From a virus (Duplodnaviria; Heunggongvirae; Uroviricota; Caudoviricetes), in IMG/VR virus record IMGVR_UViG_3300029570_000316: a stretch of 64,000 bases of DNA; one strand, given 5' to 3'. This document shows, one piece after another, positions 24,558 to 26,102 of this stretch; position 1 is the first letter of the stretch, and every line of letters starts with the position of its first letter. The position numbers and the translations under genes are program-made. Under the pieces are notes generated by a model. The model made no database searches and was not told where the DNA came from. It saw nothing but the letters and a program-made list of their open reading frames with translations.

Positions 24558-25091
24558 CTAAAAGTTTATAACATTTCGCATATAACCCAAATGATTCAAA
24601 TTAGAATAAAACCGTCCATCACGCTCTATGAATTTACCGGACTTCACAATCTCACCATTATGCAACATTGCAAACTTAGAACCATGAGCTGTCCATTTAT
24701 TCATTTCTTTCATATGTTCATTAGAACCCCAACCATATTTCTTGATAGTAGGATAAATGAAACGCTCAAAGCAAATCTGACTATCCGTTTTATCATGCTC
24801 GGAGCAAATCGGGAGCACTCCATTATGTGCAAACCAATAACCTGCCTTATAGAATGGATGGCAATTCTTGACACAAACAGAACCATGAGTAGCAAATCTA
24901 AAATGTATGATTACATTTTCATTTATATCTCGCTTCATCAATCTACGGATAAATGTAGAGAAATGCAAACTCTTGTAATGGTCAGACTCGCTCACGAACC
25001 CACAACCATCTGGATTTCTCATATATGCAGCCTTCAGCTCATCTACGGATGGCAAAGCAACACCTTTCGGACATACAATAATAACACACAT
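24558..25091 (-). CDS. class-II glutamine amidotransferase-like (Ntn-hydrolase) protein
   Basis: 177 aa starting Met-Cys (MCVIIV...), the N-terminal Cys nucleophile arrangement of GAT-II/Ntn enzymes. Adjacent to the amidoligase gene. Confidence 0.5.
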   Translation of the reverse strand: MCVIIVCPKGVALPSVDELKAAYMRNPDGCGFVSESDHYKSLHFSTFIRRLMKRDINENVIIHFRFATHGSVCVKNCHPFYKAGYWFAHNGVLPICSEHDKTDSQICFERFIYPTIKKYGWGSNEHMKEMNKWTAHGSKFAMLHNGEIVKSGKFIERDGRFYSNLNHLGYMRNVINF

Positions 25092-25166
25092 ATCTTTACC
25101 CTTTCTTTTTTCTTTGTAATACTTTGTTTTTTGTGTCCTAGGGCTTTTACCCTAGGACTACATTAA

Positions 25167-26102
25167 TTAATCATTATTGGCTGCAAATGCATCCTTACGG
25201 CTCTGGAAGAAAGCCTTCTCTTCTTTATTCAAGAAAGGTATATCTTCGATATTCATAACCTCACTAGTGAAGACATTGTTTCGAGACCAACCGACAAGCT
25301 TTGCGCAGAACTTAACCCACATTTCAATCTTCTTATAATTGGTTGAACCTTGATGCTGGCGAAACTCGATAGTCTTGTGACGTGTATAGCTCTCAGCATT
25401 TACCTTGTAATATCTATCTCCATGAAATACATTACGTCTAATATCGTAATTGCCGTGGCAATTAGAGAAATCCTTGTCAAGCAAGCTGGCTGCCCAACGG
25501 CAATTACCTCTTCTTGAAGGAGCCATGAAACTATCAATCAATCTTTCAAGCTTCTGATAATTCTTGAAAACGTTAACATACTGCTCACCTGTCAACTTAG
25601 CTGCACCGATATGAACGTGAAGACCACAAGTAGAATTAACTCTTGCACCTACAGCATCCAAAGACTTGATAGCCTTCTTCAAAGTTGCCATACCATTTGT
25701 ATTGCCATTCAATACCGGACTTACAACCTCGTTAGGGTCAACATCACCACCAACTGAAGCATCACTAACAATCTTGAAATAGCTCTTGTTATCGGTGTGG
25801 TTATAACCCTCAGAATGAATATCAACACCATTCTGACGACCTGCCTCTATCAAGGCATTGCGCTCGGCATGAACACATTCAATCTCAACACCGAATGTAT
25901 AAACGAATCTCGTTGAAGTTGAACCGCTTGGCACACAAACCTTCAACATATCGGAGATTTCTTTCTCACGAAGACCGCAAGCCTTCAATGCAACAATCTT
26001 TTCGTTGCGAGACATCTTTGACTTCTTGATTTCGTCAATAGTCTCAATTAATGACTTCTTTGAACTTGCGAATGAAAAACCAGTCTGCTTAGACATAATC
26101 AA
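25167..26102 (-). CDS. amidoligase (COOH-NH2 ligase, glutamine-synthetase/GCS2-like; Amidoligase_2-type)
   Basis: 311 aa; motifs GVEIE, GLHVHIG and IEFRQH (EFR) characteristic of this family. Confidence 0.65.
   Translation of the reverse strand: MIMSKQTGFSFASSKKSLIETIDEIKKSKMSRNEKIVALKACGLREKEISDMLKVCVPSGSTSTRFVYTFGVEIECVHAERNALIEAGRQNGVDIHSEGYNHTDNKSYFKIVSDASVGGDVDPNEVVSPVLNGNTNGMATLKKAIKSLDAVGARVNSTCGLHVHIGAAKLTGEQYVNVFKNYQKLERLIDSFMAPSRRGNCRWAASLLDKDFSNCHGNYDIRRNVFHGDRYYKVNAESYTRHKTIEFRQHQGSTNYKKIEMWVKFCAKLVGWSRNNVFTSEVMNIEDIPFLNKEEKAFFQSRKDAFAANND

Follow-up and report, generated by a model that had tools for sequence, protein, structure and literature searches.

The DNA analysed here, called the window throughout, is a 64,000-nt stretch of a tailed phage (Caudoviricetes; IMG/VR record IMGVR_UViG_3300029570_000316), which has a GC content of 38% and carries nearly all of its genes on the minus strand. 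Two adjacent genes on that strand are the subject of this work: a gene for a 311-aa Amidoligase_2 protein, a glutamine-synthetase (GS)-fold ATP-dependent carboxylate-amine ligase by prediction (25167-26102; the ligase), and a gene for a predicted 177-aa class-II glutamine-amidotransferase-like N-terminal nucleophile (Ntn) amidohydrolase (24558-25091; the GAT). The original prediction, made from the sequence alone, had proposed that this pair is embedded in the virion morphogenesis operon and modifies a virion protein covalently or makes a packaged small molecule. The gene pair itself is real: both open reading frames (ORFs) are present, and profiles, alignments and structure models support their assignment well above chance.

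Both enzymes look catalytically intact

The 311-aa ORF of the ligase opens with TTG at 26102. An ATG two codons downstream (26096) gives 309 aa, the length of the closest cluster, and is probably the true start instead of the TTG. The protein matched Pfam PF12224 (Amidoligase_2) over profile positions 3-245 of 245 with 117.1 bits (cut-off 22; E 1.5e-33) and, in PHROGs, phrog_2443 ("amidoligase enzyme"; E 2.8e-53), and no NCBIfam family matched it. The catalytic core (residues 68-270; 25293-25901, minus strand) has all three motifs, GVEIE, HVHIG and EFR, from which the family had originally been proposed. Residues E73, E75, H102, D114, S116, H162, H164, R197, R230, E246 and R248 were invariant in the homologue alignments, and E125 was invariant in a 22-sequence set spanning Bacteroidales, Actinobacteria and Firmicutes phage homologues and reached at least 90% conservation in a 50-sequence set. 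The key residues were also kept in Porphyromonas, Arthrobacter and Bacillus phage homologues at 33-37% identity. The predicted structure (pLDDT 89) has a GS-like fold, and its structural neighbours include GmaS, naphthylamine-GS, PafA and Dop; no characterised PF12224 member was found in the PDB. Ahead of the core, the model contains a three-helix bundle resembling a helix-turn-helix (HTH) domain (residues 18-53, with helices at 18-27, 32-41 and 46-53; 25944-26051, minus strand), which is also present in the Porphyromonas and Arthrobacter phage homologues. HTH matches of this bundle were all below threshold (HTH_SB, 0.04; HTH_23, 0.003 for the Arthrobacter homologue). Taken together, the residues and the model suggest that the ligase is a catalytically intact GS-fold carboxylate-amine ligase.

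The GAT matched GATase_4 with 28.7 bits (cut-off 23) over residues 47-95 only, GATase_6 stayed under its cut-off, and most GAT homologues carry a precomputed PF13230 annotation. The Met-Cys start had been likened to that of class-II amidotransferases, and M1-C2 was indeed invariant in an alignment of 50 homologues, as were R65, T68, N90-G91 and D103-S104; Cys2 would be the nucleophile after removal of the methionine. In a profile search of the PDB, GAT residues 61-94 aligned with GlmS residues 69-102, and therefore R65, T68, N90 and G91 match R73, T76, N98 and G99, the glutamine-binding and oxyanion-hole set of class-II glutaminases. The TDS(E/Q) motif (TDSE here) was invariant and aligned with the YafJ-like structure 1te5, and the best sequence matches were to the stand-alone YafJ/EgtC-type family (GATase_4, 1te5 and 3mdn). 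The predicted structure (pLDDT 96) shows a four-layer alpha-beta-beta-alpha Ntn fold, for which Foldseek found the glutaminase domain of GlmS (E 3e-7, TM 0.66), PurF, and EgtC (E 6e-4, TM 0.59). By residues and model, the GAT looks like a catalytically intact class-II (Ntn, Cys1) amidohydrolase with GlmS-type glutamine-holding and oxyanion-hole residues. Both the profile searches and the structure predictions that had been proposed as checks thus bore out the family assignments, with the limit that the GATase_4 match covers part of the GAT.

No Pfam domain was found in the C-terminal extensions of longer GAT relatives, no PADLOC defence-system model matched the ligase or the GAT, and neither protein shows any sign of export. 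On the opposite strand, a 213-aa ORF (24525-25166, plus strand) overlaps the GAT gene and is longer than it; this ORF has no homology support.

The pair is predicted to be transcribed as its own unit

The window has 13 exact copies of the sequence TATCTTTGCA, far more than chance would give, and compared with the ORF list every copy is intergenic and in front of a gene (11533, 18753, 24326, 26202, 27426, 32805, 41618, 45025, 45179, 50508, 50673, 61328 and 62033). We take it to be a form of the Bacteroidota -7 promoter element (consensus TAnnTTTG), and its copies map the predicted promoters of the phage and point, as a separate line of evidence, to a Bacteroidota host. One predicted box (26202-26211, minus strand) lies about 100 nt upstream of the ligase start. 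Between this box and an 89-aa ORF is a predicted terminator hairpin (26333-26360, minus strand; a 12-bp stem followed by a T-run; dG -17.3 kcal/mol), which would close the unit formed by a tRNA array and the 89-aa ORF. The 75-nt spacer between the ligase and GAT genes has a GC-rich stem-loop (25132-25162, minus strand; dG -20 kcal/mol, z -7.9), followed by the A-rich leader of the GAT gene. Just after the GAT stop codon, a second predicted terminator (24495-24524, minus strand) consists of a 13-bp stem and then T9, and outside the cassette another predicted box, identical to that of the ligase (24326-24335, minus strand), precedes the scaffold/capsid unit. The predicted layout is then promoter, ligase, spacer stem-loop, GAT, terminator and a new promoter for scaffold and capsid.

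A similar arrangement was found in relatives at 48-60% protein identity: 8 of 9 loci have a TAnnTTTG box in front of the ligase gene, at a distance of 48-109 nt, and in 8 of 9 the GAT gene is followed by a hairpin of -17 to -25 kcal/mol with a T-run behind it. About 25 of 40 related ligase-GAT spacers contain a hairpin and an A-rich tract, of unrelated sequence, and these elements may act as an intercistronic stabiliser or attenuator and as an unstructured leader of the second cistron. Because the pair has its own -7 box and flanking terminator hairpins, and the scaffold gene has a separate -7 box, the pair is predicted to be a bicistronic unit of its own and not a component of the head-morphogenesis operon, contrary to what had been proposed.

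Ligase and GAT genes stay together in different neighbourhoods

In the phage collection, the sole close match of the window was an unannotated human-faecal contig, MT835576 (96% identity). A first scan of IMG/VR returned 80 near-identical copies of one phage, and the diversity of neighbourhoods was taken from contig look-ups, a GTDB scan and a capsid-anchored scan. The GTDB scan gave 53 loci, nearly all in Bacteroidales isolates or metagenome-assembled genomes, including a 99% match binned with Segatella copri; copies inside contigs of 0.3-3.6 Mb from Lepagella, Muribaculaceae and Prevotella look like prophages. Homologues of both proteins number hundreds to thousands in metagenomes, many of them on common contigs. 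The cluster of intact ligases holds 2,440 sequences, and more than 300 IMG/VR stretches were matched.

We surveyed the gene neighbourhood in 58 loci, with 46 non-truncated loci used for downstream context. In every locus with upstream sequence (about 50 Bacteroidales phage or prophage loci), the ligase gene immediately precedes the GAT gene in the same orientation, usually with a gap of 20-95 nt. No conserved third gene was found beside the pair in the 58 loci. The rare inserts between the two genes are mutually unrelated (an HNH endonuclease gene and assorted ORFs of 69-82 aa), and the idea that a Pup-like tag or a small substrate is encoded there was rejected, since no conserved small ORF is present. 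The relatives are rich in selfish elements: in one locus the HNH (NUMOD4) gene was inserted between ligase and GAT (L004:9425-9964), and elsewhere intein/LAGLIDADG or Hint insertions lie in terminase and DNA methyltransferase genes (L088:3957-6281; L092:14837-17410; L094:17070-19145).

Downstream of the pair, the window encodes a scaffold-like coiled-coil protein (23442-24299), a 153-aa protein (22977-23438) and the major capsid protein (MCP; 21871-22959; Phage_cap_E, phrog_29), all on the minus strand. These three genes directly follow the pair in 20 of the 46 loci, terminase or portal genes lie a few kb further in 6, and tail-like or unrelated genes are found in the other 20. The loci adjacent to scaffold and MCP reach down to 40% GAT identity, and in two of them (L125 and L129) the pair lies directly between portal and scaffold. 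The neighbour-joining tree of the ligase is star-like with head-adjacent loci scattered over it, which fits an ancestral position and repeated insertion alike. Elsewhere, Arthrobacter phages have the ligase beside a longer GAT in the replication region, Bacillus phages have it near a gamma-glutamyl cyclotransferase (GGCT), and Porphyromonas phages have it in the head region with no GAT within 6 kb. The nearby tRNA array had also been named as a flank of the pair; its adjacency is incidental, since five other loci (L001-L004 and L006) have no tRNA in the 5-10 kb around the pair.

The portal-scaffold junction is a cargo slot

The survey was repeated from the side of the capsid with 67 viral contigs whose MCP is 50-76% identical to that of one reference locus (L089) and which have enough upstream DNA. 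Ligase and GAT were both present in 10 contigs, the ligase only in 1, and neither within 10 kb in 56. In 9 of the 10 pair-bearing contigs the pair is 1.4-1.9 kb upstream of the MCP gene and abuts the scaffold gene, and in the tenth it is at 4 kb. Dereplication at 95% MCP identity left 18 lineages, 8 with the pair, 8 without it, 1 with the ligase only and 1 polymorphic. In the polymorphic lineage, one phage carries the pair (L212) and three with MCPs 99.7% (L213), 98.1% (L203) and 97.5% (L219) identical to its MCP lack it; L203 and L219 have toxin-antitoxin genes in the portal-scaffold slot instead.

The portal-to-scaffold interval measures 1.3-5.5 kb wherever both genes were found (among L153-L221). 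In cassette-negative phages it contains Gp49/HigB with HTH_3, HicA/HicB, a HigB toxin, DUF4062, a PD-(D/E)XK nuclease (PDDEXK_4) or DUF4145 (for example L168:6611-8900, L179:6083-8900, L203:7376-8811 and L204:4363-8819). In the Cellulophaga phage Nekkels_1 (MCP 28% identical), the portal gene is directly followed by two small genes and the MCP gene. Because this variable interval holds toxin-antitoxin and nuclease genes in cassette-negative siblings, the portal-scaffold junction is a cargo slot in which the enzyme pair occurs most often but is exchangeable with those genes. The proposed link to the scaffold and capsid genes thus survives as a recurrent association and fails as an obligatory one.

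Natural disruptions of the ligase were also found. Several ligase clusters at 96-99% identity are truncated or frameshifted. On a 95-kb Logan contig (ERR13954944_4738; L148:4001-4930), a single CAG-to-TAG substitution truncates the ligase at codon 181 of 309; the remainder of the gene is in frame with 98% DNA identity, and GAT, scaffold and MCP are intact.

A gamma-glutamyl-type amide is the proposed product

The reading that we favour, at a probability of roughly 45%, is that the pair is an autonomous bicistronic accessory cassette, carried in the portal-scaffold slot of Bacteroidales siphophages and prophages, that writes and erases or processes a gamma-glutamyl-type amide for conflict and not for capsid assembly. 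The ligase would use ATP to convert a glutamate-type gamma-carboxylate into its acyl phosphate, and coupling to an amine would then yield a gamma-glutamyl amide. The GAT would bind and cleave a gamma-glutamyl amide bond in glutamine itself, in the ligase product or in a derivative of that product, and may serve to process or recycle the product or to release the amine. This division of labour is suggested because the characterised structural neighbours of the ligase all act on the gamma-carboxyl of glutamate (free Glu or the C-terminal residue of Pup), the GAT has the residues that hold glutamine, and a GGCT can take the place of the GAT. Most of these neighbours activate the gamma-carboxyl, Dop being a deamidase/depupylase among them, and cleavage of a gamma-glutamyl amide is the chemistry common to GAT-II enzymes and GGCTs. 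The logic of a ligase paired with a gamma-glutamyl-amide hydrolase, as set out in the original prediction, remains plausible on these grounds. Since neither protein shows a sign of export and the ligase needs ATP, the substrate would be a cytoplasmic small molecule or peptide, such as the cell-envelope precursor that earlier authors proposed. The pair may serve conflict between phage and host or between phages, by lysogenic conversion or superinfection exclusion, and a cargo slot common with toxin-antitoxin and nuclease genes fits such a role.

Several points weigh against this reading. Adjacency to scaffold and MCP, in 20 of the 46 pair loci and about half of the capsid-anchored lineages, exceeds what random cargo would give. 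Both genes were intact in 82 of 82 near-identical genomes sampled and are therefore normally maintained, under selection, in this phage; natural knock-outs were absent from these loci and came instead from the protein clusters and the Logan contig. With respect to temperance, no integrase was seen in the window, and one type of -7 box is common to all units there, so the box is uninformative on expression in the lysogen versus late in infection. The conserved GAT residues fit an EgtC-like gamma-glutamyl hydrolase and an ammonia-donating glutaminase subunit equally and cannot tell one from the other. Moreover, no biochemistry on any PF12224 member was found in the literature searched, and the substrate, the product and the acyl donor are those that we infer.

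The main rival to making and cleaving a gamma-glutamyl amide is a two-subunit glutamine-dependent amidotransferase, in which the GAT gives ammonia and the ligase turns an ATP-activated carboxylate into a carboxamide. One possible target is a carboxylate of D-Glu or meso-diaminopimelate in the stem peptide of peptidoglycan, on which MurT/GatD or AsnB-type enzymes act. Strict pairing, predicted co-transcription and a fixed order in about 50 loci are what such an enzyme would show, GS itself takes ammonia as nucleophile, and MurT/GatD provides a precedent (PMC3267633). The GAT, moreover, has the full glutamine-binding and catalytic set, finds its best fold matches in the glutaminase domains of GlmS and PurF and, at 177 aa, is a minimal domain that gives no sign of a further function. 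However, in Firmicutes phages a GGCT, which is unable to donate ammonia, replaces the partner beside a ligase of about 33% identity with the same catalytic residues, and Porphyromonas phages have the ligase with no GAT within 6 kb. In addition, the best sequence matches of the GAT are to a stand-alone family, and a fused GAT-ligase protein was not seen among the listed homologues. We consider an amidotransferase of this kind rather unlikely. A good deal less probable is that the pair makes a packaged small molecule or modifies a virion protein, be it the capsid, the scaffold or the K/E-rich protein, for instance by gamma-glutamylation or by forming and trimming isopeptides. The position directly upstream of scaffold, 153-aa protein and MCP genes in the window and 20 of 46 related loci speaks for it, as do the ligase within the head module of Porphyromonas phages and the protein-modifying GS-fold enzymes PafA and Dop among the structural neighbours. 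Against it, the pair is insulated from the head genes by a predicted terminator and promoter, it is missing from phages whose MCP matches that of L212 at 97.5-99.7% identity and, within 10 kb, from about half of the lineages that have a homologous head module, and no conserved small tag ORF was found. Also against it are the nonsense and frameshift alleles of the ligase that occur naturally and the location of the pair in other phyla, among early or replication genes. Capsid modification is unlikely to be obligatory, and the idea as a whole is weakened. A narrower form, in which the pair is an optional head-module accessory that adds and then trims or proof-reads a gamma-glutamyl or isopeptide mark on a head protein, would account for the pair being the commonest portal-scaffold cargo and for its abutting the scaffold gene; we regard it, too, as improbable.

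Hypermodification of nucleic acid, either of DNA bases or of the adjacent phage tRNAs, would draw on several features of the window, which encodes a Mom-family protein, several DNA methyltransferases and the tRNA array, and on the HTH-like N-terminal bundle of the ligase. Amidoligase and glutaminotransferase Pfam matches have also been described in 5-HMUDK/aGPT-Pplase clusters (Lee et al. 2021, PMC8989533). The thymidylate-synthase-like gene of the window, however, is ThyX (PF02511) and not a ThyA-like hydroxymethylase, and the scanned ORFs of the window gave no match to the 5-HMUDK kinase or aGPT-Pplase families in PHROGs or Pfam, with no search aimed at those families; thymidine hypermodification is not supported. 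Nor is a link to Mom, of which no homologue was found within 8-10 kb of the pair in 57 other loci, and with tRNAs missing near the pair in five loci and the HTH matches below threshold, hypermodification is very improbable. A role as auxiliary metabolic genes (AMGs) that boost host nitrogen or glutamine metabolism has been claimed for a Planctomycetes phage with amidoligase, GATase, GGCT and glutathione-synthase genes (PMC10945688), and for the present pair this appears extremely improbable.

Comparison with known systems

The association of an amidoligase with a class-II amidotransferase is already known and is not new here. The Pfam text for PF12224 describes neighbourhoods with a GAT-II-like thiol hydrolase or an AIG2/GGCT protein, and this kind of neighbourhood was seen in our data, with a GAT in about 50 loci and in an Arthrobacter phage and a GGCT in a Bacillus phage. 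Phage amidoligase neighbourhoods with GAT-II or GGCT genes were reportedly predicted by Iyer, Abhiman, Burroughs and Aravind in 2009 (Mol Biosyst 5:1636), as told in papers citing that work. These citing papers note the association in LUZ24-like, tf, phiEco32, RIO-1-like, OM43, Marvin and archaeal viruses. Earlier phage papers propose that cell-wall precursors are modified to block superinfection, and the label "peptidoglycan modification cassette" appears there for phiEco32, LUZ24, tf, PaP3 and RIO-1-like podoviruses. That podovirus cassette comprises GGCT, GATase, COOH-NH2 ligase, Amidoligase_2 and ATP-grasp genes. No biochemical characterisation of the phage amidoligase (PF12224) family was found in the literature searched, up to 2026, in agreement with the original statement that the system is essentially uncharacterised.

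The window cassette has in common with that of the podoviruses the ligase family, the class of the partner (a class-II GATase-like Cys hydrolase) and its phage-borne nature, but it consists of only two genes. PF14395 COOH-NH2_lig, ATP-grasp and GGCT matches were absent from the scanned window ORFs and from the Pfam lists of eight related loci, and because no such genes were found, the pair falls outside the larger podovirus definition. In addition, its GAT is a 177-aa minimal domain compared to 486 aa in LUZ24-like phages, its ligase has the extra N-terminal three-helix bundle, and its hosts are Bacteroidales. The podovirus cassette lies among early or replication genes, whereas the pair in the window and its relatives lies beside head, terminase or tail genes.

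Gamma-glutamylation ligases are paired with amidohydrolases in PuuA/PuuD (putrescine), EgtA/EgtC (ergothioneine) and GmaS with the GAT-II-like subunit of N-methylglutamate synthase. These pairs follow the same logic, with a gamma-glutamyl amide formed by an ATP-dependent GS-fold enzyme and such an amide cleaved by a glutaminase-type enzyme that has a Cys nucleophile, and EgtC, like the 177-aa protein, is a GAT-II Ntn hydrolase that stands alone. The phage proteins differ by having less than 16% sequence identity to these enzymes, by residing in a phage cargo slot and not in a catabolic or biosynthetic operon, and by the lack of oxidase, methyltransferase or dehydrogenase pathway neighbours. 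The pupylation enzymes PafA/Dop are also comparable, but identity is about 10%, no Pup-like small protein with a C-terminal Gln/Glu is encoded beside the phage pair, and the phage hydrolase is an Ntn GAT-II protein and not a second GS-fold enzyme. PuuA/PuuD, EgtA/EgtC and PafA/Dop may be regarded as functional analogues of the pair.

MurT/GatD and the AsnB-type enzymes resemble the pair in combining a glutaminase with an ATP-dependent carboxylate-activating enzyme, and the cell wall is the target class proposed in the phage literature. MurT, however, has a Mur-ligase fold and GatD is a class-I GATase, with no GS-fold ligase involved. The AsnB-type enzymes LtsA/AsnB1, which amidate peptidoglycan precursors, have a GAT-II domain fused to a PP-loop synthetase and likewise no GS-fold ligase. 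In its layout, the cassette resembles phage morons and prophage accessory or defence hot spots, in which a self-contained promoter-gene-terminator unit lies between conserved late genes, presence varies among near-identical phages and toxin-antitoxin or nuclease genes occupy the same site. It differs from them in that its -7 box is the same as that of other phage units.

Other features of the window

The tRNA array (26846-27281), which has its own -7 box at 27426, comprises five tRNAs, Lys-UUU, one unassigned, Tyr-GUA, Gln-UUG and Glu-UUC, and an RtcB RNA ligase is encoded at 1795-3000 (phrog_1075, E 5e-131). Anticodon nucleases typically attack the tRNAs for Lys, Gln, Glu and Tyr, and a counter-defence by tRNA replacement and repair is therefore plausible. 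The unassigned tRNA (26922-26994, minus strand) scored 59.6 bits with Rfam and yet received no ARAGORN assignment. By eye, its CTTGG/CCAAG anticodon stem closes a loop of 8 nt, CUAUGCAA, which would hold a 4-base anticodon, and the tRNA may be a frameshift-suppressor-like or otherwise unusual tRNA.

The Mom-family protein is encoded 11 kb from the pair (13375-14004, minus strand; PF25680, E 2.5e-35; phrog_1384); Mom of phage Mu moves glycine from Gly-tRNA onto N6 of adenine in DNA (PMC13219725). DNA methyltransferase genes lie at 14235-17719 and 63011-63736 on the minus strand. Two fragments (14235-15119 and 15169-15648) both match phrog_67 and adjoin an HNH endonuclease gene (15650-16171), which suggests that one methyltransferase gene was disrupted or split by a homing endonuclease. 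In the ThyX homologue (33371-34297, minus strand), the Thy1 domain spans residues 142-304 only, and the protein has a 140-aa N-terminal extension besides. A 2088-aa tape-measure-like protein (34445-40711, minus strand) is encoded upstream of the head genes and distant from the other tail genes, a placement also found in two relatives (L006 and L116).

Implications

The pair is no new kind of system. What distinguishes it is the two-gene form, the 177-aa GAT, the N-terminal bundle of the ligase, the promoter-hairpin-terminator layout and the preferred but non-obligatory portal-scaffold site. If the pair were an optional head accessory after all, it would alter particle stability or the fate of ejected proteins and would represent the first case in which a phage virion protein receives an amide modification from an ATP-dependent enzyme. 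PF12224 cassettes span Pseudomonas, Escherichia, Bacillus, Arthrobacter, Porphyromonas and marine phages, and for more than 15 years they have been labelled "peptidoglycan modification", "AMG" or "superinfection", with no experiment found behind these labels. The window cassette is an attractive model for the family, as it combines the minimal two-gene form with an extremely prevalent human-gut phage. Natural controls are also at hand, in the phages with 97.5-99.7% identical MCPs that lack the pair, some of them with toxin-antitoxin genes instead, and in the nonsense allele of the ligase.

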